Source of the DNA: Alphaproteobacteria bacterium
GTDB lineage: Bacteria; Pseudomonadota; Alphaproteobacteria; GCA-016699305
Assembly (NCBI GenBank): GCA_016699305.1
Contig: CP064970.1
Span: forward strand, 389,647 to 453,646
DNA length: 64,000 nucleotides
Reading direction: 5' to 3'
Shown: positions 1,453 to 33,184 of the stretch, piece by piece
Layout: each line of letters opens with the position of its first letter
How positions within the stretch are numbered: position 1 is the first letter of the stretch
Position numbers and translations under genes: made by a program
The notes under the pieces: model-generated
The model's input: only the letters and a program-made list of their open reading frames with translations
The model's database searches: none
Told to the model about the DNA's origin: nothing

Positions 1453-4400
1453 ATGTCCGACAAAGACACTCAACACATCCACAAACCCGCTCAGATGGGC
1501 GACTGGTTGACGACCGCTGTATGGATAACCGGCCTGGCCGCTTTCCTTGGCTTGGCCGTTGTCACGGCGCAGGTCAAGTCAGAGTACGACCGCTTGGCAG
1601 TGGCGCCGGTGGCCAGTGCCACCGCAGCGGCCTTGCCGCCTGAGATGGAAGAGATCCGCCAGTCTTTGGGATATAGCGGTTTTTCGGGCGCTATGACTCG
1701 CTTCTTACGCGATCGCAAGCCCGAACAACAAATGGAAATGCGTCAGTCTCTGGACAAGGCTTTGGCCTCATTGGATCGTCTGCGCGCCAAGGCCGCCGGT
1801 CAAGAAGCCCGCGCGATGGAAGCCGAATTACGCGCTTTGATGGGGCCGTTTCAACAGATCGAGGAAACCGCCGCACGCGCCGTGACCAATAGCGACGTGA
1901 CGTTTTCGGCCGGTACCGCCCTGCCCGCTTTGATGACCTTGCCGTTGATCGAAAACCGTTTGACACAGGCGCAAAACCTGATGGCCGGAGGTCAACAAAA
2001 GTCGACCGAAATCACGTGGCGTCAGGATCTTAGCCGCCTGAACCAACGATTATTCTTTCTGGCCGCTATCGGTTTGGGATTGGGACTCGTCCTGGCCGGA
2101 TCATTGGCCTGGGCGGTACGACGTCAGTTCCTGTCGCCCTTGAATTCCTTAGCCCGCAGCCTGATCGGTCTTGAAAAAGGCCAATTGGATCGCCCGGTAT
2201 GGGGGACCGAGGGCGAGGGCGAAATGGGAGAATTGGCGCGCCTTTTGGAGCGTCTGCGCCAACGCTTTGCTTCGGTTCCCGATGTCACCCTTCCCGAGGA
2301 GAAGGACCAAGAAGGCCTCCCCCTGCAGCTACGGTTTGAAGGCAAGGCGGCGGCGGTGTTTTCATCGTTGACCGACGAAATGTCGCGCGCCGTCGATTCC
2401 TTACAAGGTACCGAGCGCAAATTGATCGAAATGGTCGAACAAGAACGCAGCGGCTTCCAAGACGCCTCGCGTCATTGGCAAACTCAAAACGACTCCTTGT
2501 TGGTCCTGGCCGACCATATGCGCAATCAGATGGCGCAAACCGCCGACCGTCTCACCATGACTGAGATGAGCTTGCGCGAGATGCGCGACACAATCGTGGC
2601 GGATTTGGCAGGCTTGTCTGTCAGCCTGCGCGACCAGACGCAGCAGATGGGCATCACCGCCCAGCGTAGCGGCGAGGATTTGCGCGACTTCCTGGGCCGC
2701 GTAGAATTGGCCACCACCCAATCCTTGAACGATCTGCAAATATCCCTGCGCGAAGCCGTCGATGGGGCCAGCCGCTCCGCGCGTCAAGAAGGCGAAGGAT
2801 TCCGTTCGACCGTGCAGGCTTTGGAGTCGGATATTTCCCAGACACTGCATCAATTGACCGACCGTTTGGAGGTCGAGGCCGCCTTGCGCATGCGTACCTT
2901 AAACGAGGAAAACGATTCGCTTCGCGCCGCCATGGCCGATCTGCGCGATACCTCGCTGGGCCAGGTGAAGGAATTGGCCGGTGACCTTTCTAATGAAATG
3001 CGCCAGATGCTTACAGACACACGCCGCGAAGGTGAAATCTCGCGTGAGGCGTTGCAGTCATGGCAGCAGGCTTTGGCAGAGCGCACTCAGGGACTGGCCG
3101 AGCAGCTTAGCTACCGTATGCAGGAATTGCAGGACAACGCCACGACCCACTTTCAGGCTCTGCGCGATTCCGCCACACAGCATATGGATGTGACCCAATC
3201 CGGCCTGACCGAGCAGGCGCGCCGTTTGGAGATGACCGCCCAGACGGGCCAGGAGATACTGGACAGAGGATTAAACGATCTACGCCAGTCTGTTACGGGC
3301 ATTATCGGTCAAATTGCAAACGAGATGACCGGCGAATCCGCGCGTATGTGGCAGCGTCTGGAACAAGAGGCCATCTCGTCACGCGACGCTTCGGAAGGCT
3401 GGCGTCAGTCTGTCAGCGGAGAGATCCAAGCGACGCAGCGCATGATGATCGACGCCTTACGCCAGACCCAGGATAACTTCGTCAACGAGATCAACACGTC
3501 CTGGTCCGGCGCACAGCGCGGCCAAGTCGATCTGCGCGAGGCCTTGGCCGAGATCCACGGCGTGGTATCGACTGGCCTTGTCGAGGTCAAATCGGTTTTG
3601 GGTCAGCATATGGAAGGCGTACAGTCTTTGGCCGAGCGCGAAAGCAGCGTGACCGCCGAATCCTTGCGCGGTTGGCGCGACGCCTTGGATGTCGGCATGT
3701 CGGCTCTGCGCGACAATGTGGTCGCGCATATGCAAACGCTGGGCGATTTGGCCGGACAAGGGCAAGACCGCGTGTCGCATGCCGTTGGCGAACTGCAAGA
3801 CGCATTCAACGACGCTTGGCAGCGTTTTGAGACTCAGCTGAACGAACGCACAGGAACGGTGACGGAAATCGTCCGCCTAACGGCCAACGAGACGCAAGAC
3901 GCCCTGCGCGGCTTGCTGAACATCAATCGCAATCTGGGTCGCGCCAGCGAAGACGCGCAGTCCCTGGTGGCCAAATACGACGCCGGATTGCAGCGCAGCG
4001 TGGGCCGCATGGAAGCCGTGGTGCTGACCATGGAGAACGAGAGCGGCTCGGCTCGCCAAGCGGCCATATCGGCGCATCAGCAGGCGGAAACCACCTTGGC
4101 CTTACTGCAACAGGCGCAAGAAGCCATGCGCGATCTGTTGACGGGCCTGGCACGGCGCGTCAGCGAAACCGTGAATGTGACCCAGGACCTACGCCAAGCC
4201 ACCAATCGCTTGACCGAACAGGGCCAACGCACCGCCGAAGAATTCTCGATGACACTGGCCGATATGCGCCAGCAGACCGGCGAAATCCAAGGTCGCTTGG
4301 TCGAGGCCCAGAGCCTGGTCGGCACGGCCAGCAGTTCGCTTCGTTCGGCCGAAGGCGAATTCGTCGCCGCCACCGCCGAGATGCGTTCGCGCCGCGACGT

Positions 4401-4959
4401 GTTGGACAATCTGGTTCTGGAATTGCGCCAATCGCTGCAAGGTGCCTTCGACTCAAGCCTGCAAAAGGAAGAAGACTGGCGTTTGATGATGAACCGCGTA
4501 TCGGGCAATCTGGAATCCACCATCCGCGAAGTGATGAGCGAGATCGGGCAGCAGATCGCGCAGACGCAGCATCAATTCGGCATGCTGACCCAGCAGGTGG
4601 AACGTTTGTCGGATCAGACAGACTCGGCTTCGCAGCACACGATGCGCGTGATTACCTCTCTGTCGCAACAGGGCCAGCAGGCCATCTCCACCACGGGCGA
4701 GATCGAACGCCGCCTGGAGATGATGACCAGCCGTCTGGACAACGCCGCCAAGGACAACACGCAAAGCATCTCGCGCATGAGCGAGGATGTGGTGATGCGC
4801 GTCGCGACGCTGCAATCGTCGCTCAACGGCACGTTGGAGCGTCTGGCCATCCTCGGCCAATTGACCTCCACATTGGGCGCCGTGGCCGGTCAGCTGGGGC
4901 AGTTGGTGCCCGTTTTGTCCGCTCTGCCCTTAGTGGACAACGAAGCCCGCCGCGCGTAA
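1453..4959 (+). CDS. membrane-anchored HAMP-domain protein with ~900-aa coiled-coil cytoplasmic region
   Basis: Two hydrophobic segments (WLTTAVWITGLAAFLGLAVV; LFFLAAIGLGLGLVLAGSLAWAV) followed by HAMP-like RRQFLSPLNSLARSLIGLEKGQLD...GEMGELARLL, then long heptad-like Q/E/R/L-rich sequence; no MCP signalling motif seen. Confidence 0.6.
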   Translation: MSDKDTQHIHKPAQMGDWLTTAVWITGLAAFLGLAVVTAQVKSEYDRLAVAPVASATAAALPPEMEEIRQSLGYSGFSGAMTRFLRDRKPEQQMEMRQSLDKALASLDRLRAKAAGQEARAMEAELRALMGPFQQIEETAARAVTNSDVTFSAGTALPALMTLPLIENRLTQAQNLMAGGQQKSTEITWRQDLSRLNQRLFFLAAIGLGLGLVLAGSLAWAVRRQFLSPLNSLARSLIGLEKGQLDRPVWGTEGEGEMGELARLLERLRQRFASVPDVTLPEEKDQEGLPLQLRFEGKAAAVFSSLTDEMSRAVDSLQGTERKLIEMVEQERSGFQDASRHWQTQNDSLLVLADHMRNQMAQTADRLTMTEMSLREMRDTIVADLAGLSVSLRDQTQQMGITAQRSGEDLRDFLGRVELATTQSLNDLQISLREAVDGASRSARQEGEGFRSTVQALESDISQTLHQLTDRLEVEAALRMRTLNEENDSLRAAMADLRDTSLGQVKELAGDLSNEMRQMLTDTRREGEISREALQSWQQALAERTQGLAEQLSYRMQELQDNATTHFQALRDSATQHMDVTQSGLTEQARRLEMTAQTGQEILDRGLNDLRQSVTGIIGQIANEMTGESARMWQRLEQEAISSRDASEGWRQSVSGEIQATQRMMIDALRQTQDNFVNEINTSWSGAQRGQVDLREALAEIHGVVSTGLVEVKSVLGQHMEGVQSLAERESSVTAESLRGWRDALDVGMSALRDNVVAHMQTLGDLAGQGQDRVSHAVGELQDAFNDAWQRFETQLNERTGTVTEIVRLTANETQDALRGLLNINRNLGRASEDAQSLVAKYDAGLQRSVGRMEAVVLTMENESGSARQAAISAHQQAETTLALLQQAQEAMRDLLTGLARRVSETVNVTQDLRQATNRLTEQGQRTAEEFSMTLADMRQQTGEIQGRLVEAQSLVGTASSSLRSAEGEFVAATAEMRSRRDVLDNLVLELRQSLQGAFDSSLQKEEDWRLMMNRVSGNLESTIREVMSEIGQQIAQTQHQFGMLTQQVERLSDQTDSASQHTMRVITSLSQQGQQAISTTGEIERRLEMMTSRLDNAAKDNTQSISRMSEDVVMRVATLQSSLNGTLERLAILGQLTSTLGAVAGQLGQLVPVLSALPLVDNEARRA

Positions 4960-5131
4960 ACGCCTATCTTCCTGATAAGATGGATCACGGCTCGGCCTTC
5001 TTGGCTAAACGGGAGCGCATCTCGCGTCGATTGATCAAATTTTCAACAAATCCTCGGCATAATCAGCCGGATATCAATCATGGCCGTTTTATCATCCGAT
5101 ATAGCCCGATCTTGGGCAGAGGTGATGTGCC

Positions 5132-5980
5132 ATGGTCGAACACAACAAACGAATTACCGAGATATCCTACAATAAGGACGGCTTTCGATCGAACCTGGCC
5201 GCCAAAAAAGGCGTCTATTACCTCGAGTTCGATCATGGGTTGGTCGATCGCGCCAAGATCACCGGTCATCCCGAGAGCGACCCCGCGCCGTTCTTCCCCA
5301 GGGCCTTTTTGCGTCTGGACCAGGGGTATGATGCCCCCGAGAAGGCGCAAGAAGTGGCCTCACTCGTGGAAAATCTGTTCCACGAGCATAGAAAGGATGT
5401 CTTTCCTAACGAAAAGGCTTCCTTGCGGCGCGGCGGCATGTTCCACGATGCCGAACAAGCGCGGCTGACCATAAAATCCCTTGCTGACTTCGCGCAGGCC
5501 GAGGGGCCACAGGCGATGGTAACGGCGATCGCCACCGGCCTTGGAATCCCTGTTCAGGAAATGTCACCCACAGACGCCAAACCCGCTTTGGACCCCGGAC
5601 AGGAATGGGGCGGCAGAACATGGGCAAAAATGGAATCCGTGATTAAACTCGGCGACTCGCATTTCATGTGTGTATCCGCGCCCTATGGCGCGCCTGAGGT
5701 GCATTTTGTAAACAAACTGGGCGACGCGAAAGAATCGTACGCTTTCGCTTCTGCCATGGAGCCCGAGGAACTAAAAAAAGGAATCTCAAGTTTCGTCAAT
5801 CATGCCTGCGATGGCGTCAAGCTGGGACGCAACGCCACGGCCCTAAGAGAAACGCTACTACAAGAGGGATTGTCACAACACAGGCTGTGCCGCCCACAAA
5901 CAGAAGCCCCGCAGCGCCATGCCGAAAAGCCCCGCATGACACATGCGGCCTATGGACAGGTGCAGCTTAGGTGTGGATGA
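5132..5980 (+). CDS. hypothetical protein
   Basis: 282-aa ORF; overlapping alternative-frame ORF 4980..5468 judged less likely; no motif recognised. Confidence 0.35.
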   Translation: MVEHNKRITEISYNKDGFRSNLAAKKGVYYLEFDHGLVDRAKITGHPESDPAPFFPRAFLRLDQGYDAPEKAQEVASLVENLFHEHRKDVFPNEKASLRRGGMFHDAEQARLTIKSLADFAQAEGPQAMVTAIATGLGIPVQEMSPTDAKPALDPGQEWGGRTWAKMESVIKLGDSHFMCVSAPYGAPEVHFVNKLGDAKESYAFASAMEPEELKKGISSFVNHACDGVKLGRNATALRETLLQEGLSQHRLCRPQTEAPQRHAEKPRMTHAAYGQVQLRCG

Positions 5981-6193
5981 AGAATCTTCCGGTAAAAGCA
6001 CGGAAGTCCTGGAACGCCCATTATACTGCAACAACGCCCTAGGCTCGAGCAGGCATGATGCTAAGCGGGCTGTTTAAGGAATTAGCAGAAAGATGCGGCG
6101 CTGACCCAAACGAGTAGTAAGAAAGAGAGGCGATCATCAAGGACCCAACCCATTTAACAGTCCTAGGCCGATCGCCTCAATCCCCCTTTTTGA

Positions 6194-7531
6194 CTAATAC
6201 CGATAACGATCGTCCTTATATGGACCACCCACCGGCACGCCCAGATAGTCGGCTTGCTTCTGGCTTAGATGAGTCAGCTTGACGCCGATCTTATCCAAAT
6301 GTAGCCGCGCGACCTTTTCATCCAACTGTTTGGGCAGGGTATAGACCTTGTTTTCGTATTTCTTGTGGTTCTGCCACAGCTCGATCTGCGCCAAGACCTG
6401 GTTGGTAAAGGACGCGCTCATCACGAAGCTGGGATGGCCCTTGGCGCAGCCCAGATTGACCAAGCGTCCCTTGGCCAGCACGATCAGGCGCTTGCCATCG
6501 GGGAAGACCACCTCATCCACCTGAGGCTTCACCTCTTCCCAACGATAGTTACGCAACGAGGCGATATCGATCTCCGAGTCGAAATGGCCGATATTGCACA
6601 AGATCGCGCCGCTCTTCATGTGGCGCATGTGGTCCAAGGTCACCACATCGACATTGCCGGTGGCGGTGACGAAGATATCGCCATAGCCGGCGGCCTCCTC
6701 CATCGTGGTGACCTGATAGCCTTCCATCGCCGCCTGCAAGGCCGTGATCGGGTCGATCTCGGTCACCAAAACGCGCGCGCCTTGGCCGCGCAGCGAGGCG
6801 GCGGAACCCTTGCCCACATCGCCATAGCCGCACACCACGGCCACCTTGCCCGCCAACATGACGCCGGTGGCGCGTTTGATGCCATCCACCAAGCTTTCGC
6901 GGCACCCATACAGATTATCGAATTTCGACTTGGTGACGCTGTCATTCACATTGATCGCCGGAACCATCAGATTCCCCGCGCGGGCGCGTTCGTACAGACG
7001 ATGCACGCCCGTGGTCGTCTCCTCGGACAAGCCCCTGACATCCTTCATCAGGTCTGCATGATTCGCATGCATGACCTCGGTCAGGTCGCCGCCATCGTCC
7101 AACAGCATATTGGGACGCCAGCCATCGGGACCGGTGATGGTTTGTTCGATGCACCACAAAGATTCGTCTTCGGTCTGGCCCTTCCAGGCAAAAACAGGGA
7201 TGCCAGCCGCCGCGATGGCCGCCGCCGCCTGATCCTGTGTCGAATAGATGTTGCATGAGGACCAGCGAATTTCCGCGCCCAATTCACGCAAGGTTTCAAT
7301 CAGAACCGCCGTTTCCGTGGTCATGTGCAGACAGCCCGCGATGCGCGCGCCCTTAAGCGGCTTGGTCTTGCCATACTCCGCGCGCAGGGCCATCAGGCCG
7401 GGCATCTCGCCTTCGGCAATGCGGATTTCTCGCCGACCCCAATCGGCCAACGACATATCTTGTACCTTGAAATCACCCGAAGCCGGCGGGGCGGCATGAT
7501 CGTTTTTGGGGGAAGCGGCCTTGGCCGACAT
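6194..7531 (-). CDS. ahcY: adenosylhomocysteinase
   Basis: Translation matches S-adenosyl-L-homocysteine hydrolase throughout ([21 protein letters not shown]..., NAD-binding [10 protein letters not shown]); start moved to second ATG (7531) because AAGGAGG lies 7 nt upstream. Confidence 0.93.
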
Positions 7532-7651
7532 GGGATCCTCCTTAGAAAGACTTTGTTTCATGTGATAACGGAAGGCGCAGCATATCCCATGCCAATGCCT
7601 ACGGCAACCAGGCCAACCGACCTAAAATAAGCCGAACCTAGTACGAGACTT

Positions 7652-8662
7652 TCACAGCCAGCCCTTACGTTTGAACAACCACACGGGAACCACGGCGGAT
7701 AGCGCAATCACTACCAATGCCAAAGGATAGGCCCAAGGCTGCTCCAATTCGGGCATATGGCGGAAATTCATTCCGTAAATGCTGGCGATCAAAGTCGGCG
7801 GAAGAAATGCCGCAGCGGCAACCGAAAATATCTTGATGATGTTGTTTTGCTCGATGGAAATCAGTCCCAACACGGCATCCAGTAGAAACGTGGTCTCATG
7901 CGCCAGGAATTGCGCATGGTCGCTCAGCGAGCGCAAATCCGTGTCCAGGGTGCGGATGCGCGAGCTTTGCTCCTTGGTCAAACGGCCCAAGAAGTTCGTG
8001 TCCATAAAGACCTGAAGCCGCAACATGCCGTTCAGGCATTCGCGGATTTTGTGGATCATGTCGCCCGACTGGCTAAGGCCGCGCATGGCCGTATCCAGCC
8101 ATTTGCCGTGATAGCGGGGGGTCAGTTGATGCTTTTTCTTTTGTTCCAGCGCGTGATCGGCGTTCTGCTGGAATATCTCGGTTGAAAGATCGTCGATCTG
8201 ATGGGCGACATATTCCAGAATATCCGCCGTGCGATCAGCCACCGCATCCAACATGCACAAAGCCGCGTCAACAGAAGTCGCCAACATGTCCGGCTGACGG
8301 CGGATGCGGAACGCGAAGGTATCCAGGGCGCGCGGTTTGCAAAACCGCACCGTCAACATATGGGTGGGCGTGATCACGATGGTCAAATCGTCGACAGTCG
8401 GATGAATGCTCTCGGCCGCCGAGAGGATCGAGGTGGTCATGAACAAAGCATCGCCTTCCAGATATAAACGACTGGATGCCTCGATCTCCTCCATTTCAGA
8501 CAGAGTCGGCAGGTCCAAGGATAATGCCTTCGAGATATAATTCCGTTCTTCCTCCTCGGGCTGCAACAGATCGATCCACACAGTGCTCTCGGGAACGTCC
8601 TGCCCCGGTTCCAAACGCACGTCATGCACGCGGCCATCACGCAAGGCATAGGCGGTAATCAT
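7652..8662 (-). CDS. corA: magnesium/cobalt transporter CorA
   Basis: C-terminal two TM helices with YGMNF (GMN) signature; ATGA overlap with folD stop. Confidence 0.88.
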
Positions 8663-9546
8663 TGCGGCACCCCCATTCCCTGGAGCGCGCAGGCCGCCTC
8701 AAGCGTATTGGCAAACAGACACGCAATCGTCATCGGTCCCACGCCGCCGGGGACAGGCGTGATGAATCCGGCTCGGGAGGCCGCCTCGTCAAACGCCACA
8801 TCGCCCACAAGAGTGGTCTTGTCTGCCTGTTCGAGTCGGCTGATCCCCACATCGATCACGCATGCCCCGGGCTTGATCCAATCGCCGCGCACCATCCCAG
8901 CCTGACCTGTGGCCGCGACAAGGATATCCGCCTGCCGAGATTCGGCAGCCAGATCGCGGCTGCGCGAATGGGTGCTGGTGACCGTGCAATCCGCATGCAG
9001 CAGCATGGCCGCCATGGGACGCCCCACAAGATTCGAACGTCCCAACACCACAGCTTTTAATCCTGACAGATTCTCACCCAAAGCCTCGCGGATCAGCATC
9101 ATGCATCCGCGCGGTGTGCAAGGCTGCAACCCCGGCAAGCCCAGATTCAAACGCCCGACATTCAACGGATGAAGACCATCGACATCCTTATCCGGCGCGA
9201 TGGCGGCAATGATGGTCGAAGCGGATAACGGCTTGGGCAAAGGCATCTGCACCAATATTCCATGCACGTCGGATGCTTGGTTCAGCGTGCCAATCAGGGC
9301 CAGCAGCTCATCTTGTGGGATCGTGGCCGGCAGGGTATGCACCACCGAATGCATTCCGATACTCTCGGCGGTACGTTTCTTATTGCGGATATAGATTTGG
9401 CTGGCCGGATCATCGCCCACCAACACCGCCGCCAAACATGGAACCGTGCCGCCCCGCTTTTGCAGCACATCGACCTTGCGCGACACATCGCCCAAAAGCC
9501 GTGTCGATAACGCCTTGCCGTCTATGATGCGGGCCGCTGTCGTCAT
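8659..9546 (-). CDS. folD: bifunctional methylenetetrahydrofolate dehydrogenase/cyclohydrolase
   Basis: [11 protein letters not shown]...[16 protein letters not shown]... FolD family; start set at [11 protein letters not shown] (ORF track starts 15 codons upstream). Confidence 0.88.
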
Positions 9547-9571
9547 GATGCGTTCCGATATCTCCTCGTCA

Positions 9572-9853
9572 TCACAATGGGCCGTATTCACGCATCAAAT
9601 TGCGCAAAAATACGATCACAAGGATCACCACGATCGGCGATAGGTCCACGCCACCGATGCTGGGAAGGAAGCGACGAATGCGGGCCAAGACCGGCTCGGT
9701 GATCTGGTGCATAAAGCCCAGAATTGCCCGAACCGCCGGGTTATAGACATTGATGACGTTGAACGCCACCAACCAACTGACGATGGCCGAAATGATGATG
9801 ACCCACAAATACATATCCAGCGCCAAATCCAGCACGATGAACAACGATGTCAT
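9572..9853 (-). CDS. yggT: YggT family membrane protein
   Basis: 93-aa hydrophobic protein from internal Met [28 protein letters not shown]...; GGAGA RBS upstream; ORF-track N-terminal extension judged spurious. Confidence 0.65.
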
Positions 9854-10112
9854 CGGGTATCTCCATTCTTGTTTTCGTCTCCCGCACCCATCGGGCGGGT
9901 TCGTGGTGGAGGTTAGCAGCCTGGAAGGTCGCGTCAATCTTTTGCAGATTGACACCAAGAGATGAAAAAAAGCTCAAGTTGCGCTTATCGCCACAAGAAA
10001 GCAGCGCCGCGAGGGAAAGCGGCGCTGCCTGGGGAGGGATAAATGATGTAAAGAAAACACAGAAGAAGCAGTAATCACCCACGCAAAAAACCGATTTTTT
10101 CCATGGCATCCC

Positions 10113-10946
10113 TTATGTTGGCACATATGTCGATTTTGTAAGGGAACGCCATTCGTGATCGTGATCAGGCCGAGTCAGCTTGTGTTGATGGCGATTTCCA
10201 GCGTGTACTGCACGAGTGGGACCCGGATCTCGTGAACCTGGCTTGGTAATCAACGAATTACAGTAGTCTGACGCCACTTTAGGTAACGTAACATGGGCCT
10301 TTGCTGCCGCATCAACACACTGCTGGGCCGCTTTGGGGGCCAATGCTCTGTTAATAGCCATGACGACCTGAATAGCTTGATAATTGTCGATATGATCCTC
10401 TTCATGCCGGGATATCTCTGCTTTTGTGGTCGTAACCTCTTTGGAGATAGCGTCAAAGCTGTTGACTTTGCCTTCGGCATGAACTGAAAAGTCATCTATA
10501 GCTCTGGTGTCGCCAGTATAAGCCGCATATGAGGCAACCTCGCGAATGACCCCTTCACGAAGTTCAGCAACATCTTTGCTCGACCCAATCGGAACAAATT
10601 TAGGGTCAAGGAAACGCGCGAAATGTAAGAGCGCCAGATGACGGTAATAGGGCGAATTGTCACTATCCTTGTCATCTGGATGTGACTCATCCGAATTCAG
10701 CACATTATAGATCGCCCCAAGCCTTTCACGATAGACATTCTTTAGACTCACACATTGATCATCGCTAGCCCGATTATCGCCTGGGGCCTGCATTTTCTCG
10801 AAAAAATCTTCCATCACGGCCTTGTAATTTGCACGGCCAGCCTCCATCAATTTATAGCATTCAGTTGGCGGTATCGAGACGAGATTGAGACCAGGTTTTT
10901 CCGACCGATGTTCGAGAGCCGCATAACCAGATACGATGGTACTCAT
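10113..10946 (-). CDS. hypothetical protein, lower-GC gene adjacent to tRNA
   Basis: ORF with AGGAGGG RBS before second Met (MSTIVSGYAALEH); visibly AT-richer than flanking core genes; no motif recognised. Confidence 0.5.
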   Translation of the reverse strand: MSTIVSGYAALEHRSEKPGLNLVSIPPTECYKLMEAGRANYKAVMEDFFEKMQAPGDNRASDDQCVSLKNVYRERLGAIYNVLNSDESHPDDKDSDNSPYYRHLALLHFARFLDPKFVPIGSSKDVAELREGVIREVASYAAYTGDTRAIDDFSVHAEGKVNSFDAISKEVTTTKAEISRHEEDHIDNYQAIQVVMAINRALAPKAAQQCVDAAAKAHVTLPKVASDYCNSLITKPGSRDPGPTRAVHAGNRHQHKLTRPDHDHEWRSLTKSTYVPT

Positions 10947-11273
10947 TGTTCCCTCCTGCCTCTCGTTATTCATGGCGTCATAGACATAACTTCTATGATG
11001 AAATTATATTTGTATAAAATTAAAAACGCAACTATTCTTTATGTGAATTGTCATATAGTTTCATTTTATCACAACTTGTTATGAATATTTACAGGATATA
11101 AAAACACCTACTTATCTAGTGGGCTTGATTTTTGCGGGTTTCGCTCTTTTTCCCCTTCTCATAATCCGTTTCTCGCCCCGCGCGCTGATTTGGTATGCAG
11201 ATAACTCCGTTAGGCATACACACATCGCCCTGCCGGACAGGATAAATCTGTGGTAACGCCGAAAAAGAAGTAT

Positions 11274-11348
11274 TGGTAGCAGCGGAGGGATTTGAACCCC
11301 CGACCAAGGGATTATGATTCCCCTGCTCTACCGCTGAGCTACGCTGCC
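11274..11348 (-). tRNA. tRNA-Met (anticodon CAT; elongator Met or Ile2-lysidine type cannot be distinguished)
   Basis: Minus-strand sequence GGCAGCGTAGCTCAGCGGTAGAGCAGGGGAATCATAATCCCTTGGTCGGGGGTTCAAATCCCTCCGCTGCTACCA folds by hand into cloverleaf: 7-bp acceptor, U8, D-arm GCTC/GAGC, anticodon loop AUCAUAA, T-loop TTCAAAT, encoded CCA. Confidence 0.85.
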
Positions 11349-11547
11349 ACAAACGGAGACGCAGCATATACTGATCGGCTGGCTCTGCCAAGGGATTCAG
11401 CAATTCTGGTTTTATGGGAACGAGGAAGTTTAAAACGAGGAAAGGGTAAAAGCAGAAGCTGTTAGTGTCGGCACGTTGTCCATGTGGGAAGTTTTTACAT
11501 GCGCCTGACAATCTTAATCATTCAACTGGCTTGGAAGTTGAAGAACC

Positions 11548-13110
11548 TCACGCACCCTGCAAAAGGCGACGCAGCAGATCCACATCCTGGCGCAGGTCCT
11601 TATCCGTCTGGCACAGCTCCTCCACCTTACGCACGGCGTGAATGACCGTGGTGTGGTCGCGACCACCGAAACGACGCCCGATATCCGGCAGAGAGCGCGA
11701 GGTCAGCTGCTTGGCCAGATACATCGCCACCTGACGCGGACGAGCCACCGCGCGCTCACGGCGCGTGGAGCACATCTCGGCCAGGCGCATATTGTAATGC
11801 TCGGCCACGCGACGCTGGATATCCTCGACCGTCAAGGTGCGGTCATGGGTGCGCAGAATGTCGTGCAGCACCTCGCCCACCATATCGAGGGAGATGGTCT
11901 GCCCCACGAGGTCGCCATGCGCCGTCAAACGGTTCAACGCGCCCTCTAATTCACGCACATTCGACGTGATGCGATGCGCCAGGAACTCCAACACATTGGC
12001 GGGAACGCCGCGCCGCGACTGCTCGGCCTTTGACTGCAAGATACCCAAGCGCAGCTCATAGCTGGTGGGATGAATATCCGCGCACAGCCCCCAGCCTAGA
12101 CGCGAACGCAAGCGTTCCTCGATTTGGTCCAGTTCTCGCGGAGATTTATCTGCGGAAACGACGATCTGTCGGTTCTCATCCACCAAGGCGTTAAAAGTAT
12201 GAAAGAACTCTTCCTGTGTGGAATCTTTGCCGCTGATGAACTGCACATCATCGATCATCAGCACATCGACCGAGCGAAACTCCTCTTTGAACGCCATCGT
12301 GTCTTTAAAGCGCAACGCCCGTACGAACTGATACATAAATTTTTCAGCCGACATATAGATCACGCGCCGACCGTTGTTCTGGCCACGAATATGCCAGGCA
12401 ATGGCATGCATCAAATGCGTCTTGCCCAGCCCCACGCCTCCATACAGAAACAGGGGGTTAAACGACACAGAGGATGTTTCGGCCACGCGCCGCGCGGCGG
12501 CATGGGCCAATTCATTGGGCTTACCCACAACGAATTGGTCAAAGGTAAAGCGGGCATCCAGCGGCGCGCATAAATCATCGCGCCAGTCTTTCATGGCCGA
12601 GCTTACCGCCTTGGCAGGCAGACCGTTCACAGGCAACGCCGTCCCGATCAGCGGCATGGCCGTGCGGTCCGAATTTGCGGGAAGGTCGCCGATGGCACTT
12701 GTCTGGGTCTGACCAACCACAACGGGCTGTCCCGCAGATGCAACCTCGACCGATGGCAAAACGCCAAAGCGGATGTCTTCCAGCTCGTATCCCGCCTCGC
12801 GCCAAGTGGCCGAGATCATGGCACCGTAATGCGTCTCCACCCAATCGCGCATGAATCGCGTGGGCAGGCTGATGACCACCGTGCCGTCTTGGCCGCAGCG
12901 CTCACAGCGCATGCTTTCTAGCCAGCGGCGGAAATTTTCAGTGCCGACTTTTTTGCGCAACAAGGCGCGCACACTTAGCCACAACGCTTCGGTCGAAGGG
13001 GCGGAATCGGAATCGGCATTTGAAAGACTATGCGCAGCCGAGCGGCTGACCGCGGATGGGTGAATGTTGTCGGTGTGAATGGCCCGTGCGCCCATGCCCC
13101 CTACCCCCAT
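11548..13110 (-). CDS. dnaA: chromosomal replication initiator protein DnaA
   Basis: AAA+ Walker A GVGLGKTHLMHAIA, box VII/sensor region and C-terminal DNA-binding helix-turn-helix (RQVAMYLAKQLTSRSLPDIGRRFGGRDHTTVIHA). Confidence 0.95.
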   Translation of the reverse strand: MGVGGMGARAIHTDNIHPSAVSRSAAHSLSNADSDSAPSTEALWLSVRALLRKKVGTENFRRWLESMRCERCGQDGTVVISLPTRFMRDWVETHYGAMISATWREAGYELEDIRFGVLPSVEVASAGQPVVVGQTQTSAIGDLPANSDRTAMPLIGTALPVNGLPAKAVSSAMKDWRDDLCAPLDARFTFDQFVVGKPNELAHAAARRVAETSSVSFNPLFLYGGVGLGKTHLMHAIAWHIRGQNNGRRVIYMSAEKFMYQFVRALRFKDTMAFKEEFRSVDVLMIDDVQFISGKDSTQEEFFHTFNALVDENRQIVVSADKSPRELDQIEERLRSRLGWGLCADIHPTSYELRLGILQSKAEQSRRGVPANVLEFLAHRITSNVRELEGALNRLTAHGDLVGQTISLDMVGEVLHDILRTHDRTLTVEDIQRRVAEHYNMRLAEMCSTRRERAVARPRQVAMYLAKQLTSRSLPDIGRRFGGRDHTTVIHAVRKVEELCQTDKDLRQDVDLLRRLLQGA

Positions 13111-18819: not shown

Positions 18820-21092
<2,273 letters not shown>

Positions 21093-21163: not shown

Positions 21164-24100
21164 TTACTTCCAGTTCGCCGCAATCACCGTGGCCAAAGAG
21201 TCCTGATAATGTTGCGGCAGGGTGTTCTCATTCGCCGCAGGCGGCGCGAATGCGGCCATGGCATTGACCAAATTCTCGACCTGGTTCGCCAGCAAAGCCT
21301 TGCCGTCCGAAGTCTTGAATTGCTCAATCTGGGCCACCGCTCCGCTGCCATACCAGCCACTGATGGTCATGCAATCTTCCGTTCCGATGATGCTGACCTC
21401 GAGATCGCTGTTCAGCTTTCTGAACCAGATTTGGTCGCTGGCGATACCTGAACCAAACGACATCATGTCGCTATTGCCGGCAGTGCTGTCATATTCCTGG
21501 ATGGAGTCAACATACGAGCCACGAGCCATCACATAGGTGTCGTTGCCCTGCCCGCCAATCAGCCAATCACGCCCTGTGCCACCATCCAGCGTGTCATTGC
21601 CCGCATCGCCGTTGAGTGTATCATTGCCATCCTGGCCTTGCAGCAGATCGTCTCCATAGCCGCCGTTTAGAATATCGGCACCCACGCCGCCCGCCAGTCT
21701 GTCGTTGCCATCTTCGCCATTGATTTGATCATCGCCGCCATCGCCGCCCAGCGAGTCATGACCCGAGCGGCCATAGACGTAATCATTGCCGTCGCCGCCA
21801 TTGATGGTGTCCGCCGTGGCATAGCCAGTTAGAACGTTATCTTCCGTTGTTCCTGCCAAAACCTTGGCCTTCACCGCATCGACTCTCCAGACGGTTCCAT
21901 CGGCAAATTTGATATTCTCGATCACACTGTTCGTTGCGCCGTCCTGAGTGAAATAGCTCGACACATTCAGCGTATCATCTGTGCCTACGAGGCTGATCAC
22001 CAGGTTGCCATTGTCGTTCCTTAGCATCGTCTGTGCAGCGGAGATTCCCGCACCCAACAGAACCGTATCGGCATTCACGCCCACGGCGTCAACGTCACCG
22101 TTGTTGATCGTGTCTTGCCCGCTTCCAAAGCCAAACAGATAAGTATCGGCACCGTTGCCCCCACTCATCTGATCATCACCTGTACCACCGTCGAGCGTAT
22201 CGGCTCCGTCTCCCCCGTAGAGATTATCGCGACCTTCCATACCGCGCAGCACATCATTCCCCGCGCCGCCATCCAGTGTATCGTCGCCAAAACCCGCACC
22301 GCCGGTCAGCGTATCGTTACCGCCATCACCGTATAAACAGTCATTGCCGTAACCGCCGTCGATGATGTCATTGCCGCCATGCGCATAGATCGTATCATCG
22401 CCAGAGGCCCCGGCCAGGGAATCAGCCGTCTCAAATCCTATCAGAGTGTCACTGGAGTTGGTGGCGACCGTCACCTTGGCCTTGATCGCCGCCACATTCC
22501 ACACCGTGCCATCGGCGAATCTGACGTTCTCGACGGCATGAGGCGTCGCTCCATCCTGACTGAAATAGTTTTGAACCGTCAGTTTGTCATTGGTGCCGAT
22601 GATCGATAAGGCCAAATTATCCCACTCGCGAGAGGCCACCACATCCGCGACCGCCACGCCGGCAGAAAACTGGATGGTATCGGCTTTTACGCCCAACGCA
22701 TCCACGTCGTAATTATTGATCGAATCCTGTCCGCTGCCACGCCCGAACAGATAGACATCCGCGCCATCGCCTCCCGACAACACATCATTGCCCAAGCCAC
22801 CATTAAGAGTGTCATTGCCGCCATAGCCGTATAGCGAGTCGTCACCCACCCCACCCAGCATGCTTTCCGACGCCGCCGTGCCCGCCTTGTACATGGCAGC
22901 AGGAGCGGCGCTCAATCTGCTCTTGACCGCGGCATAGTCCCATACCGTACCGTTGGCAAAGCCAATAAGCTCCACCGCGTTGGCTGTCGTGCCGTCCTGC
23001 GAGAAATAGCTTTGAACCGTCAGCCTGTCATTGGTGCCGATGATTGACAGAACCAGATCATCGCCCAAACGGGAAGCAGCCACATCCGCCGGCACGATTC
23101 CTGCCTGAAAAATGATGGCGTCCCTGGACTGGCCGAGAGCATCATTGTCATTATTGCTGATGGTATCCTGACCGCTGCCGCGCCCGAACATATAGCTATC
23201 AGCCCCATCACCCCCGCCAAGCGTGTCATTGCCTAGACCACCATAGATGCGGTCATTGCCCGATTCCCCATAGAGGGTATCGTCACCCTCATCGCCGTAG
23301 ATCGCATCATCATCGGCGCCGCCATATATATAATCATTGCCCGCGCCGCCCAATAACCCGTCATAGCCAGCGCCGCCACTGATGTTGTCAGTGCCGTCAC
23401 TGCCGCTGATCGTGTCAGATCCATCATAGCCATTGATCTGGTCATCGCCCGCGCCGCCATTGATGTTGTCCGCGCTGGCATAGCCGTACAGCGTGTCTTT
23501 TTCATTCGTGCCCAGCAAGGTCTTGGCCTTCATTGTGGCCACGTCCCATACCGTGCCGTTAGCAAAGCCAATAAGCTCCACCGCGTTGGCTGTCGTGCCG
23601 TCCTGCGAGAAATAGCTTTGAACCGTCAATCTGTCATTGGTGCCGATGATCGACAGAACCAAACTATCGCCCAGACGGGAAACAGCCACATCCGCCGGCA
23701 CGATTCCTGCCTGAAAAATGATGGCGTCCCTGGACTGGCCGAGAGCATCATTGTCATTATTGCTGATGGTATCCTGACCGCTGCCGCGCCCGAACATATA
23801 GCTATCAGCCCCATCACCCCCGCTAAGAGTGTCATTGCCTAGACCGCCATACAGACGATCATTGCCCGATTCCCCATAGAGGGTATCGTTACCCCCGTCG
23901 CCGTAGATCGCATCATCACCAGCACCACCATTGAGGCTGTCATTGCCCGCGCCGCCGAGCATCCCGTCATGGCCATCCTCACCATAGAGGACATCGGCCC
24001 CATCATCGCCATACAGCGAATCGCTGCCGCCATTGCCTTGGATTGTGTCCCCACCCGCGCCGCCACGAATAGTCTCTGCACTGACAGAGCCATACAGCGA

Positions 24101-30880: not shown

Positions 30881-31203
30881 GCCACCGGGCTGGCGGTCAT
30901 CAAGTTCAGCTTGGTAAACGCCTCGACCTTCCCCAGCAGAGCGGCGTTTTGGCTCATGGCGATGGCAAGGTCGGGCAGTTGTCCATAGCCGCGCATCTGC
31001 GGCAGCAGCAATGTGCGCGGGTTCAGGGCGACGGTGCCGCCATATACCGTGTTCACATTGTCATAGGCAAACCACGCATCCACCACCTTGCCCGTCGCGC
31101 CAGTCGTGCGTGTAAAGCTGGATTCCTTGGTCACCAAGTTTCCGGCAATCGTATAATTGCTCGCAGTGGCGTTCAGGTTAATGCTGGCAATGCCGCTTTC
31201 CAT
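30781..31203 (-). pseudogene. 5'-truncated copy of RTX-gene segment (residues ~426-515) fused to conserved tail
   Basis: MESGIASINLNATASNYTIAGNLVTKESSFTRTTGATGKVVDAWFAYDNVNTVY... near-identical to big protein, then diverges to ...NDDMVNDNTPQAHTNVASCLIVNEFTCRLAA*; in-frame stop directly upstream. Confidence 0.55.
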
Positions 31204-31267
31204 TTTGGTTTCAAATCGCTAGACTGGCGCGCTGTTTCGTCCCTGCATAAGGTTCGCGTCAAGGCCC

Positions 31268-33184
31268 ATGTTCACCTGGTCATCACTGCTGCCTACGCGC
31301 CGCGCCCTGATCATCTCGCATGACACGCTGATGATGATGTTGGCTTTGGTGGCCGCTTTGTATGCTCGCGTGGGCGGCGATGCCTTTGGTCGATATGCCG
31401 ACGCCTTGACCTTGGGCCTGCCCTTACTGGCTTTGTTGTCCGCTTTTGTCTTTTTAGCCTTTGGTCTGCATCGAGGATTATGGCGCTATGTTTCGACCGC
31501 TGAGCTAGTGGTGATCGTCAAGGCCGTGACCGTGGTTGTGGCCGCCTTCTTGGCCGCGATGTTCGCCCTGACGCGGCTTGAGATTCTGCCTCGTTCCGTT
31601 CCTTTCATCCATTGGTTCATGGCCCTGGTCCTGCTGGGCGGTCCGCGTCTTGTGTACCGTATGAGCCGCGACCGACGCCGCGACCGAGACATGGCCCCAG
31701 CCGCCGAGCGCATCTGCGTGCTTTTGGTGGGCGCGGGGGACGAGACGGCGCAGTTTCTGCATGCCCTGGCCACCCGCCCCGGGGCACCCTGGCAAGTGGT
31801 GGGCATCTTGGACGACAAGGGCCGCCGCACCGGTCAAACCATTTTGGGCCAAAAGGTGCTGGGCACATTGGATGAAATGGACGAGGTGATCGCCCGTTTA
31901 CGCGCAAACAATGTGGTGGTGCGTAAATTGGTGCTGACACGTCCCGGCGAGTCCGGAGATAGGATACGCAAACTATTCGATCGCGCGGATCGCCTGGGCC
32001 TGTCGCTGGCCCGTCTGCCGCCGGTCACCGAATTGCGCGAGGCCGAGAATCATCCGGGCCAAGGCCTCACCCTGCCCTCGATCTCGGTCGAAGATTTGCT
32101 GGGCCGCCCGCATGTCAGCTTGGATAGCACGGTTCTGAGCCAGATGATTTCGGGACAAAGGGTGCTGGTAACCGGCGCGGGCGGCACCATCGGGGGTGAA
32201 CTGGTGCGCCAGATCGCCGCCTTGTCCCCTGCCCGGCTGATCTTGGTCGATCATAGCGAGTTTAATCTGTACTCCATCGAGACGGAATTGCGCGCGCAAG
32301 CCCATCTGCCTCTGCCCGCTTCGGCATGGCGCGGAGTGCTGGGCGATGTGCGCGATGGCGATGCGATGATGCGCCTGTTCGAACAAGAGCGGCCCGATCT
32401 GGTCTTTCACGCCGCCGCGCTCAAGCATCTGCCGATCGTCGAATCCTTTCCCTGTCAAGGCGCGTTGACCAATGCCGTGGGAACGCATCATGTGGCGCAG
32501 GCAGCGGCTGCATGCGGCTCTAAGGCGATGGTCCTTATCTCGACCGACAAGGCCGTGAAACCTTCCAGCGTCATGGGGGCGACCAAGCGTTTAGCAGAAA
32601 TGCTCTGCCAGGCCCGCGACGCCCAAAGCGCTCCCGGCAGCACACGCTTTCTCACAGTCCGCTTTGGAAACGTGCTGGGGTCCAGCGGCTCGGTCGTTCC
32701 CCTATTCCAGCGCCAATTGGCCCAGGGGCAACCGCTGACCGTGACGCATCCCGAGATGCGCCGCTATTTCATGACCGTGCGCGAAGCGGTGGAATTGGTC
32801 CTGCACGCATCGGCCTTTGGCTCGGCCCAAGAAAGTGTGCGTGGTACGGTCTTTGTGTTGGATATGGGCGAGCCGGTGCGTATCCTGGATTTAGCACGCC
32901 AGATGATCCGCCTGGCCAATCGGCAGCCCGACGATCCAAACGCCATTATCTTTACCGGAACCCGTCCGGGCGAGAAGCTGAACGAAGAATTGTTCGACCC
33001 TGCCGAATCTCCGCGTAAGGTTGCCGAAGGCCTTATGGCCGCGACCCCGCCCTTGCGTCCCTTGAACGAGATGGAACGCCTGGTATCGCAGATTGAGCTT
33101 GCCGCCCATACGGGCGACGATGAGATGGTACGACATCTGGTTTTCGAGGCGTTAGAAGGCAAACAGGCGCAAGGTGCGACTTAG
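31268..33184 (+). CDS. polysaccharide biosynthesis protein, CapD/WbpM/PglF-like membrane nucleotide-sugar 4,6-dehydratase
   Basis: N-terminal TM helices; Rossmann motif VLVTGAGGTIGGEL; ...FHAAALKHLPIVE...; start codon uncertain. Confidence 0.8.
   Translation: MFTWSSLLPTRRALIISHDTLMMMLALVAALYARVGGDAFGRYADALTLGLPLLALLSAFVFLAFGLHRGLWRYVSTAELVVIVKAVTVVVAAFLAAMFALTRLEILPRSVPFIHWFMALVLLGGPRLVYRMSRDRRRDRDMAPAAERICVLLVGAGDETAQFLHALATRPGAPWQVVGILDDKGRRTGQTILGQKVLGTLDEMDEVIARLRANNVVVRKLVLTRPGESGDRIRKLFDRADRLGLSLARLPPVTELREAENHPGQGLTLPSISVEDLLGRPHVSLDSTVLSQMISGQRVLVTGAGGTIGGELVRQIAALSPARLILVDHSEFNLYSIETELRAQAHLPLPASAWRGVLGDVRDGDAMMRLFEQERPDLVFHAAALKHLPIVESFPCQGALTNAVGTHHVAQAAAACGSKAMVLISTDKAVKPSSVMGATKRLAEMLCQARDAQSAPGSTRFLTVRFGNVLGSSGSVVPLFQRQLAQGQPLTVTHPEMRRYFMTVREAVELVLHASAFGSAQESVRGTVFVLDMGEPVRILDLARQMIRLANRQPDDPNAIIFTGTRPGEKLNEELFDPAESPRKVAEGLMAATPPLRPLNEMERLVSQIELAAHTGDDEMVRHLVFEALEGKQAQGAT

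Follow-up and report, generated by a model that had tools for sequence, protein, structure and literature searches.

A locus of about 10 kb was analysed within a 64,000-nucleotide stretch of an alphaproteobacterial genome (contig CP064970.1; the whole stretch is called the window below). It contains a gene for an RTX protein of 1874 amino acids (aa) and, upstream of this gene, an AT-rich stretch of 4.4 kb in which small genes alternate with pieces of the RTX gene. On sequence comparison, the locus encodes a clip-and-link RTX protein of the FrpC/ApxIVA family, whose members probably act as polymorphic toxins between bacteria, in a mirrored arrangement. An earlier note, made from the sequence alone, had described a minus-strand mosaic of about 10 kb between atpD and a capD-like gene, with a gene for an RTX protein of 1874 aa and AT-rich small genes interleaved with RTX duplicates. 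The flanking genes (atpD, 19641-21092; capD-like Polysacc_synt_2 gene, 31268-33184), the repeats and the gene orientation agree with that description, and these features go far beyond what chance would produce. The open reading frame (ORF) 21164..26788 encodes 26 HemolysinCabind stretches, the GC content falls to 0.27-0.46 across about 26700-30600 versus 0.55-0.64 in the RTX gene and its neighbours, and copies of 433, 315 and 47 bp of the RTX gene are found upstream of it.

The family assignment is based on the self-processing module (SPM), which follows the N-terminal domain, or head, of the RTX protein. A phmmer comparison with the FrpC SPM (PDB 6SJW, 6sjw_A) gave an E value of 3e-43 over chain residues 1-175, with the alignment starting exactly at P415. 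An SPM profile matched aa 304-472 of the RTX protein with an E value of 3.8e-73, and the domain is labelled PF26745:SPM in public collections. The protein therefore contains a homologue of FrpC residues 415-591, the module of the clip-and-link family. Equivalents of W451, W519, D478, D579, G477 and G491, the structural SPM residues singled out by Kuban et al. 2020, are all kept in a pairwise alignment with FrpC. At the position of the Asp414-Pro415 bond cleaved in FrpC, both SPM copies of the locus have Ser303-Pro304 (codons 25877-25882 and 28845-28850). Among 105 homologues, the scissile residue is D in 67, S in 25, C, T, A and E in three each, and N in one; Ser, Cys or Thr precede the SPM proline in about 30% of this set.

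The same module is the sequence duplicated between the RTX gene and a second, 385-aa ORF located upstream. Homology between the two sets in sharply with the KFNQASEQGS codons, starting 30 nt ahead of the Pro codon of the SPM, and breaks off just as sharply after 433 nt, while the heads are unrelated. The two copies (25477-25909 and 28445-28877) are 97.9% identical, with 9 mismatches. Judging by these matches, the duplicated segment is the SPM domain with the pre-SPM linker, not the RTX nonapeptide region. The copies share the codon phase (offset 2968 nt, start codons differing by 237 nt, i.e. 3 x 79), so that recombination between them would be in frame. The earlier note was right in placing a different N-terminus on a near-identical copy in the gene 28362..29519, and its geometry for a head swap across the repeat holds; the repeated segment, taken there for RTX calcium-binding sequence, is the SPM.

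A self-comparison of the window, called for by the earlier note, was carried out by blastn and with a repeat finder, and placed the repeats exactly. Besides the 433-bp pair, a 315-bp segment of the RTX gene (25218-25532) recurs at 30881-31195 with 92% identity, and a left-flank sequence of 232 nt is present twice (27415-27646 and 30645-30876, 92%). An element of 98 nt occurs in three good copies (27549-27646, 30248-30345 and 30779-30876), with a diverged fourth at 28362-28444. No inverted repeats were detected by the repeat finder: all repeats are direct, in the minus-strand orientation of the genes. An independent Logan contig of 1.7 kb (L084, run SRR11673981) has the same order as 25834-27512, at 99.3% identity, and stops at the edges of the repeats, indicating that this part of the locus is not an assembly artefact.

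Read 5' to 3' on the minus strand, the locus is composed of five units, whose elements are listed in Table 1. The first is an old 3' part of the SPM with its linker, capped by a tail, as the sequence closing the truncated copies is called here. The second is formed by a left-flank repeat and the small gene A114, and its head is gone. A tail, orf225, an SLT head, the 433-bp SPM copy and a diverged tail make up the third, and orf148, a DUF6973-type head remnant and a 47-nt piece of the RTX body the fourth. In the fifth unit, a left-flank repeat is followed by A117, orf43 and the full-length RTX gene, which is termed the expressed one. The general plan of a unit is left flank, small gene, head and SPM, and the same two conserved sequences bracket the SLT cassette and the expressed cassette.

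Table 1. Elements of the locus, in 5' to 3' order on the minus strand; positions refer to the window.
Unit	Element	Position	Strand	Basis
1	Oldest remnant: last third of SPM and linker, tail-capped, inside ORF 30781..31203	30881..31195	-	Matches RTX gene 25218-25532, 92%; SPM profile positions 122-175
2	Left-flank repeat copy 2: tail (30779-30876), promoter-like site, start of A114	30645..30876	-	Repeat comparison
2	A114, paralogue of A117; head of its cassette lost	30360..30704	-	ORF
3	Tail/left-flank copy right behind A114, no SPM fragment ahead	30248..30345	-	Repeat comparison
3	orf225, Cys-rich protein with signal peptide, conserved partner of SLT heads, candidate periplasmic immunity protein	29565..30242	-	Homologues in L082 and L083
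3	Orphan gene, 385 aa: SLT/lysozyme head (28878-29519), SPM copy (28445-28877), tail (28362-28444)	28362..29519	-	Pfam, blastn, SPM profile
4	orf148, small protein with a membrane anchor, encoded ahead of the DUF6973 remnant; candidate orphan immunity gene	27892..28338	-	One N-terminal hydrophobic segment
4	DUF6973-type head remnant, truncated and frameshifted, 62 aa	27682..27870	-	Match to P0064 head
4	RTX-body fragment, 47 nt, fused in frame to tail	27635..27681	-	Matches 24260-24306, 87%
5	Left-flank repeat copy 1: tail (27551-27646), promoter-like site, 5' untranslated region, first 19 codons of A117	27415..27646	-	Repeat comparison
5	A117, small helical cytosolic protein, first gene of expressed cassette, candidate partner/immunity protein	27121..27474	-	ORF
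5	orf43, between A117 and RTX gene start	26942..27073	-	43-aa ORF; no family, no transmembrane segment
5	RTX gene, full-length: head, SPM, linker, RTX body, C-terminal region, 1874 aa	21164..26788	-	ORF, Pfam, SPM profile
5	N-terminal head now in place, aa 1-293, with many glycine-zipper motifs and hydrophobic segments	25910..26788	-	Sequence motifs
5	Pre-SPM junction KFNQASEQGS and SPM	25373..25909	-	phmmer against 6sjw_A, SPM profile
5	RTX nonapeptide and HCBP_related repeat body (limits approximate), internal 606-nt repeats	21389..24688	-	Pfam, repeat search
5	C-terminal region ending ...VIAANWK*, presumed type I secretion signal	21164..21388	-	Motif common to relatives

The SLT cassette has a head that matches Pfam SLT with 28.7 bits (cut-off 21.3), its SPM copy stops at position 144 of the 177 of the profile, the last 33 being absent, and the encoded 385-aa protein is identical to an NCBI entry (P0001). 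Both flanks of the cassette are intact (98 nt at about 95%, 433 bp at 98%), so that either a deletion, with loss of 2968 bp, or gene conversion could put the SLT head and its partner gene before the RTX body in frame. In two further loci (L082 and L083), SLT heads are immediately preceded by homologues of the partner, orf225; the Smith-Waterman z values are 12.3 and 9.6, with none of 2000 shuffles reaching the score, and orf148, used as a control in the same test, gave a z of -0.3. In the fourth unit, the remnant sequence ...ESIISKLGGRENGPADAYRHQLLSAELTRKFGE... matches the head of protein P0064, which in turn matches DUF6973 with an E value of 1.5e-9; orf148, next to it, gave no family match in domain scans.

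The sequence collections contain many proteins built on the same plan. A search with the product of the 385-aa ORF gave 1185 proteins, of which almost all have PF26745 behind differing N-terminal regions. Pfam recognised an SLT or phage-lysozyme domain in nine of 114 heads, Peptidase_M23 in three and DUF6973 in three; Ntox44, LysM and DUF6782 (a putative metallopeptidase) are the other families found, and heads from Halomonas gave an AHH nuclease and a weak colicin-like match. Most heads are without a Pfam family, and many have hydrophobic, glycine-zipper-like stretches. A variable toxin domain on a conserved secreted scaffold, as in polymorphic toxins, is therefore found across the homologues.

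Some toxin-like heads are adjoined by candidate cognate genes, of the Imm11 family for AHH and of the orf225 family for SLT, while no partner of the expressed head of the window could be given a function. The Imm11 match upstream of AHH heads, in a locus of Halomonas sp. SpR1 (L058), scores 30.2 bits (cut-off 22.1). There, six tandem Imm11 paralogues of 212 aa are interleaved with two truncated AHH-head SPM genes (2463-11528), and a full-length SPM-RTX gene is located on another contig of the same genome (L059). ORFs for proteins with multiple transmembrane segments or for lipoproteins abut or overlap the head gene in L002, L024, L065, L076, L078, L081, L088 and L091. By their sequence and position, the genes directly upstream of heads look like immunity genes.

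The distribution of upstream arrays was evaluated in a scan of one genome per species, which revealed at least 306 SPM-encoding places, of which 79 loci were kept. These span Alpha-, Beta- and Gammaproteobacteria, Campylobacterota, Nitrospirales, Desulfomonile and others. In seven of the 79 (L024, L058, L065, L071, L076, L078 and L081), a hidden Markov model survey detected truncated head-SPM ORFs upstream of a longer SPM gene and on the same strand; orphans in this position are also found in L001, L002, L083, L088 and a Methylomonas plasmid locus (L090), for a total of 12 other loci from four bacterial classes. The sole downstream piece is a 63-aa scrap in L076, in regions that were sampled less well because many loci end inside the long gene. 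Within each array, orphan and main SPM are 82-96% identical in nucleotides, the heads are unrelated, and the sequence just behind the tail is likewise repeated. Orphan cassettes sharing conserved sequence with the main gene, another hallmark of polymorphic toxins, are thus present in the window and in these 12 loci.

In a metagenome-assembled genome (MAG) of Burkholderiaceae (L081), the array is immediately preceded by type I secretion system (T1SS) genes, for an ABC protein and HlyD. The left flank of the second cassette is a 315-bp duplicate of the 3' end of hlyD (8333-8646 and 10659-10973, 81%), which suggests that the cassette was imported together with part of hlyD. SPM genes are also found on 135 plasmid records, mostly annotated merely as "calcium-binding protein", and are common on plasmids of Rhizobium, Sinorhizobium and Agrobacterium.

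These data bear on the earlier note as a whole. Its proposal that the variable part is N-terminal and the orphans lie upstream applies to the 12 other loci as well. A single fixed architecture among relatives, which it had named as contrary evidence, is not what was found, the SPM standing behind unrelated heads in more than 1,100 proteins. Nor are the small genes prophage or insertion sequence remnants, since orf225 homologues accompany SLT heads and Imm11 accompanies AHH in Halomonas. On both counts its overall reading is supported by comparative genomics, with the corrections that the repeat is the SPM and that the family is a known one.

The remainder of the RTX protein consists of RTX repeats and a presumed export signal. 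Pfam detects the 26 HemolysinCabind stretches with an E value of 1.4e-101, together with six HCBP_related domains, and the GGxGxD nonapeptide repeats typical of RTX proteins and T1SS substrates occupy the C-terminal half. The C-terminal motif recurs in L015, L021, L035, L038, L068, L080 and L090, and T1SS genes stand alongside some of the relatives (ABC and HlyD in L081 and L091, TolC in L090). Export by a T1SS through a C-terminal signal is inferred from these sequence features. Within the body, tandem blocks of 606 nt (22937-24172) share 82% identity across 630 bp, reaching up to 94% within 300 bp, and the repeat number may therefore vary by unequal recombination, as for the reported frpC alleles.

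The expressed head contains 15 GxxxG motifs and transmembrane-like segments at aa 157-176 and 204-249; a single-sequence AlphaFold 2 (AF2) model of it has a predicted local distance difference test score (pLDDT) of 52 and is not reliable. A117, the first gene of its cassette, encodes a protein 36% identical to that of A114. The AF2 model of A117 consists of five helices (pLDDT 75), and its comparison with the PDB by Foldseek gave no match below E 0.8. A word-seeded search with A117 and A114 retrieved only the protein itself; 27 remote homologues were found, with no Pfam family in any of the 10 scanned. A blastp comparison with the heads and small ORFs of the window found no homologues among 81 related loci. 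The tail also contains the beginning of a 40-aa ORF (27471-27593, minus strand), whose stop codon and the GTG start codon of A117 overlap in GTGA; this ORF may have arisen by chance, or may act as a leader or in coupling.

Taken together, these elements are best accommodated by the following model. The N-terminal head would be the variable warhead, the SPM behind it both a release device and the homology block for recombination, and the RTX body with the C-terminus the export part. The AT-rich region upstream would represent a stack of displaced cassettes, each with a left flank, a candidate immunity gene and a head ending in a partial SPM. With the SPM and the left flank as sites of homologous recombination, new cassettes would enter beside the RTX body and shift older heads upstream, and displaced cassettes would keep their partner genes while the heads decay. 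Outside the cell, Ca2+ would fold the SPM and the head would be freed or exposed, so as to attack neighbouring bacteria at the peptidoglycan (SLT head) or at the membranes (glycine-zipper head), the partner genes protecting kin. Export, head release, toxicity, protection and head switching are inferred from the domains present and the neighbouring genes.

Several observations weigh against this model. The expressed head belongs to no Pfam or NCBIfam family and has no recognisable toxin domain, and the only homologue found is a single fragment, 99% identical. A117 and orf43 have no signal peptide, transmembrane segment or known immunity family. The RTX protein lacks the Asp-Pro scissile bond of the clip-and-link family, and the cleavage chemistry of FrpC requires the Asp side chain (PMC7078468), in place of which a Ser is present. 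No T1SS genes occur among the 10 large ORFs of the window that were scanned, which include type II secretion system (T2SS)/type IV pilus-type ATPase and platform genes, pnp, lon, dnaX and dnaA. Two metagenome DNA scans for natural recombinants or relatives, with the SPM junction and with the tail, returned no match, and the Logan contig is collinear with the window. Finally, parts of the array are frameshifted or truncated, and the array may therefore be inert.

This last point leads to an alternative which is regarded as unlikely, that the upstream region consists of decayed leftovers of old duplications or horizontal acquisitions, with no present role. The DUF6973 head is indeed cut to 62 aa and frameshifted, the A114 cassette is headless, the oldest SPM piece is a mere fragment and the SLT orphan is without the last 33 SPM profile positions. 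However, the ORFs for the SLT head, orf225, orf148, A114 and A117 are intact, and only 9 mismatches in the 433-bp repeat point to a recent event or to ongoing gene conversion. Moreover, left flanks are conserved and promoter-like, and the same organisation, with intact partner genes, is found in the 12 other loci.

It is still less probable that the heads serve for adhesion or anchoring in a clip-and-link adhesin, with small genes encoding FrpD-like anchors and variation reflecting host or surface specificity. The published model for FrpC/FrpD and ApxIVA is one of adhesion (PMC7078468, PMC5472700), a lipoprotein gene overlaps the SPM gene start in L091, like frpD/frpC, and most heads have no recognisable enzymatic domain. 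Against an adhesin speak heads with peptidoglycan hydrolases, AHH nuclease and Ntox44, partners with Imm11, and the multi-transmembrane proteins that accompany glycine-zipper heads; in addition, the family is common in free-living environmental bacteria, to which host immune pressure does not apply. A mosaic created by mis-joined reads is hardly credible. The genome is indeed a MAG, with repeats of 100-430 bp in this region, but the locus lies on a 2.06-Mb contig, is matched in part by the collinear Logan contig, and has the same architecture in isolate genomes and complete plasmids.

The boundaries of the cassettes display a further regularity, related to the tails. The left flank comprises a tail, a sigma-70-like -35/-10 pair, a 5' untranslated region and the first 19 codons of A117 or A114. 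The sigma-70-like match (TTTACA, 18 nt, TAAATT, with an upstream TG) is found inside the tail at 27574->27545 and 30804->30775 on the minus strand; such a site upstream of both A117 and A114 suggests that each cassette may carry its own promoter. In the window, all truncated copies close in frame with similar peptides, ...(A)ANDDMVNDNTPVTQSNVASCRIVKEFTCRLAA*. Truncated homologues from Beta- and Gammaproteobacteria end in AANDCRWRMAA*, AANDGEWRMAG* or AANDEVLKLAA*, one from an alphaproteobacterium in AVNDNFGELPVRAAS*, and those from Campylobacterota in VNNQNFKNTRRVA*. Grouped by lineage, the tail patterns are AANDxxWxxAA*, AVNDNFGE...AAS* and VNNxxF...VA*. Tails were located in L001 (9130-9176, 10890-10936), L002 (5380-5411), L024 (8870-8890), L076 (8765-8806), L078 (8480-8519, 10580-10633), L088 (2565-2600) and L090 (7415-7450), and the tail stop often overlaps or abuts the start of the next gene (L024, L076, L088). 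A different end is seen in a Neisseria sp. MAG (L065, 8270-8370), where the orphan terminates in an inverted repeat, a pair resembling DNA uptake sequences (ATGCCTGTCTGAA...TTCAGACAGGCAT), rather than in an ssrA-like tail.

In pattern and spacing, the tails resemble the tags encoded by ssrA, namely AANDENYALAA of E. coli, AANDNFAEEFAVAA of Caulobacter and a third, VNNTDYAPAYAKAA, which we take to be that of Helicobacter. All three tag sequences occur in the published literature. The pattern xN[D/N/E]..., ending in A, is found in 21 of 120 SPM matches and in 2 of 863 background ORFs, and several tails outscore all 863 background C-termini against the lineage-matched ssrA tag, in a comparison made post hoc; the tails of the window are only weakly similar to the tag (p 0.04-0.1). 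Three other origins were evaluated. The tails are not transfer-messenger RNA (tmRNA) genes, as ARAGORN found no tmRNA in the window and Rfam nothing relevant in 26500-31500 at E <= 10. A leftover of the RTX gene's own C-terminus is not supported, the tails scoring no better against it than shuffles (p 0.34-0.68). Nor is the 3' end of a conserved upstream gene, for which single-cassette loci gave only three short-ORF matches to a lenient pattern (L029, L046, L061), probably due to chance. Clear upstream tails are seen only in loci already carrying orphans (L001, L002, L078). On their sequence, the tails may be encoded degrons for non-secretable fragments, or may result incidentally from regulatory DNA that is conserved in the left flank.

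These features may be joined in a more specific and rather doubtful proposal, that two-flank cassettes, in which partner gene and head stand between a conserved left flank and the SPM, a dual-purpose left flank and a different release chemistry together define a distinct system for the exchange of N-terminal head cassettes. As with pilS in the Neisseria system described below, silent upstream cassettes could serve as templates that are copied into the expressed position. The left flank may carry the promoter and also cap the displaced, truncated ORF with a lineage-matched ssrA-like degron, which may destroy non-secretable toxin fragments while the immunity genes stay expressed. The SPM variants with Ser-Pro, Cys-Pro or Thr-Pro may free the head by a chemistry other than the Asp anhydride route of FrpC.

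As regards the genomic context, the RTX and atpD genes are convergent, with 72 nt between their stop codons. A formate/nitrite transporter gene precedes atpD, and no recognisable atpC follows it. The dnaA gene (11548-13110, minus strand) and a tRNA-Met are found about 10 kb from the RTX locus (region 11274-13110).

Of the systems known from literature, the closest are FrpC and FrpA of Neisseria meningitidis and ApxIVA of Actinobacillus pleuropneumoniae, which share with the RTX protein a homologous SPM and the order of head, SPM, RTX repeats and C-terminal signal. In meningococci, frpD lies immediately upstream of frpC (PMC3034196), in the position of the partner gene here; the two genes form an operon, their products bind each other tightly, and SPM cleavage at Asp-Pro has been characterised (PMC3034196, PMC7078468). 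FrpC-like proteins vary in the N-terminal ~350 residues, a variation ascribed to immune pressure (PMC5472700). The SPMs of FrpA and FrpC are 98% identical, but the N-terminal parts before them differ in length, the SPM starting from about residue 298 and 415, respectively, and any protein can stand N-terminal to an SPM (PMC12538545). The present locus differs in having Ser-Pro, an unrelated head, no FrpD homologue, an upstream cassette array and an environmental alphaproteobacterial host. The FrpC/ApxIVA family is treated in the literature as adhesion-related or of unknown function: FrpC, FrpA and ApxIVA have been studied for decades with no agreed function, and the SPM is already in use as a protein-ligation tool.

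An antibacterial role has a precedent in the X-Tfe/X-Tfi pairs of Xanthomonadales. Bayer-Santos et al. 2019 described an antibacterial effector of a type IV secretion system that is homologous to RTX N-termini and has an FrpD-like immunity protein, and FrpC/FrpD were hypothesised to be a T1SS effector-immunity pair (PMC6759196). In the pair Smlt3024/Smlt3025 the toxin is N-terminal and the secretion signal C-terminal, with a lipoprotein for immunity encoded upstream, an order corresponding to the one proposed here; many RTX proteins have N-termini homologous to that of Smlt3024, and Smlt3025 resembles FrpD (PMC6759196). X-Tfe proteins use another secretion system and signal (XVIPCD), and no SPM, RTX body or orphan arrays are described for them.

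Large RTX proteins of a T1SS-exported family also act as bacteriocins in rhizobia and plant pathogens (e.g. RzcA), with a mechanism and domain organisation left uncharacterised in the review of these proteins (PMC3034196). MARTX toxins are T1SS-exported RTX proteins as well, and release their effectors by autoprocessing after export; in contrast to the heads described here, MARTX effectors are internal, are released inside eukaryotic cells by a cysteine protease, and come with no immunity genes or orphan arrays. For the arrangement of silent and expressed copies, a parallel is the pilE/pilS system of Neisseria: a single expression locus has incomplete silent copies upstream of it, flanked by conserved sequence, which homologous recombination can copy into that locus. 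The proteins are unrelated, the cassettes described here carry their own partner genes, and no evidence of a dedicated element promoting recombination was found here, although no search aimed at one was made.

The earlier note had regarded the arrangement as not belonging to a described system. This stands insofar as the literature search, which left most subscription journals outside, turned up no paper that presents SPM-RTX proteins as polymorphic toxins with cassettes lying upstream; the family itself is known, and the antibacterial idea for FrpC dates from 2019. If the family is a polymorphic toxin system delivered by T1SS, with the warhead at the N-terminus, the known interbacterial weapons would gain a whole secretion pathway and a mirrored gene architecture. 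This would also account for the variable N-terminus of FrpC and for its tight binding to FrpD, and would yield candidate toxin-immunity pairs by the thousand; most heads are without a Pfam family.

A further resemblance is to the classical polymorphic toxins CdiA, Rhs and MafB. With these the locus and its relatives have in common a conserved delivery scaffold that bears differing toxin domains, small candidate cognate genes nearby, foreign cassettes that are AT-rich, and orphan modules that keep the conserved recombination stretch, as well as the AHH, Ntox44 and Imm11 families. Polymorphic toxins were defined by a C-terminal toxin and a 3' immunity gene, in a survey that reported no T1SS or N-terminal-toxin architectures, and Ntox44 only with T2SS, type VI and type VII secretion systems (Zhang et al. 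2012, PMC3482391). Here the candidate toxin is N-terminal instead of C-terminal-most, the partner gene is located 5' of it, the orphans lie upstream, and export is presumed to be by T1SS. The locus would work like a polymorphic toxin system, yet departs from two formal architectural features of that class, and its product is an SPM-RTX protein by homology, without the Asp-Pro bond. The comparison gives the SPM-RTX family a testable function, and carries the principle of polymorphic toxins over to warheads at the N-terminus of proteins presumed to be T1SS substrates.

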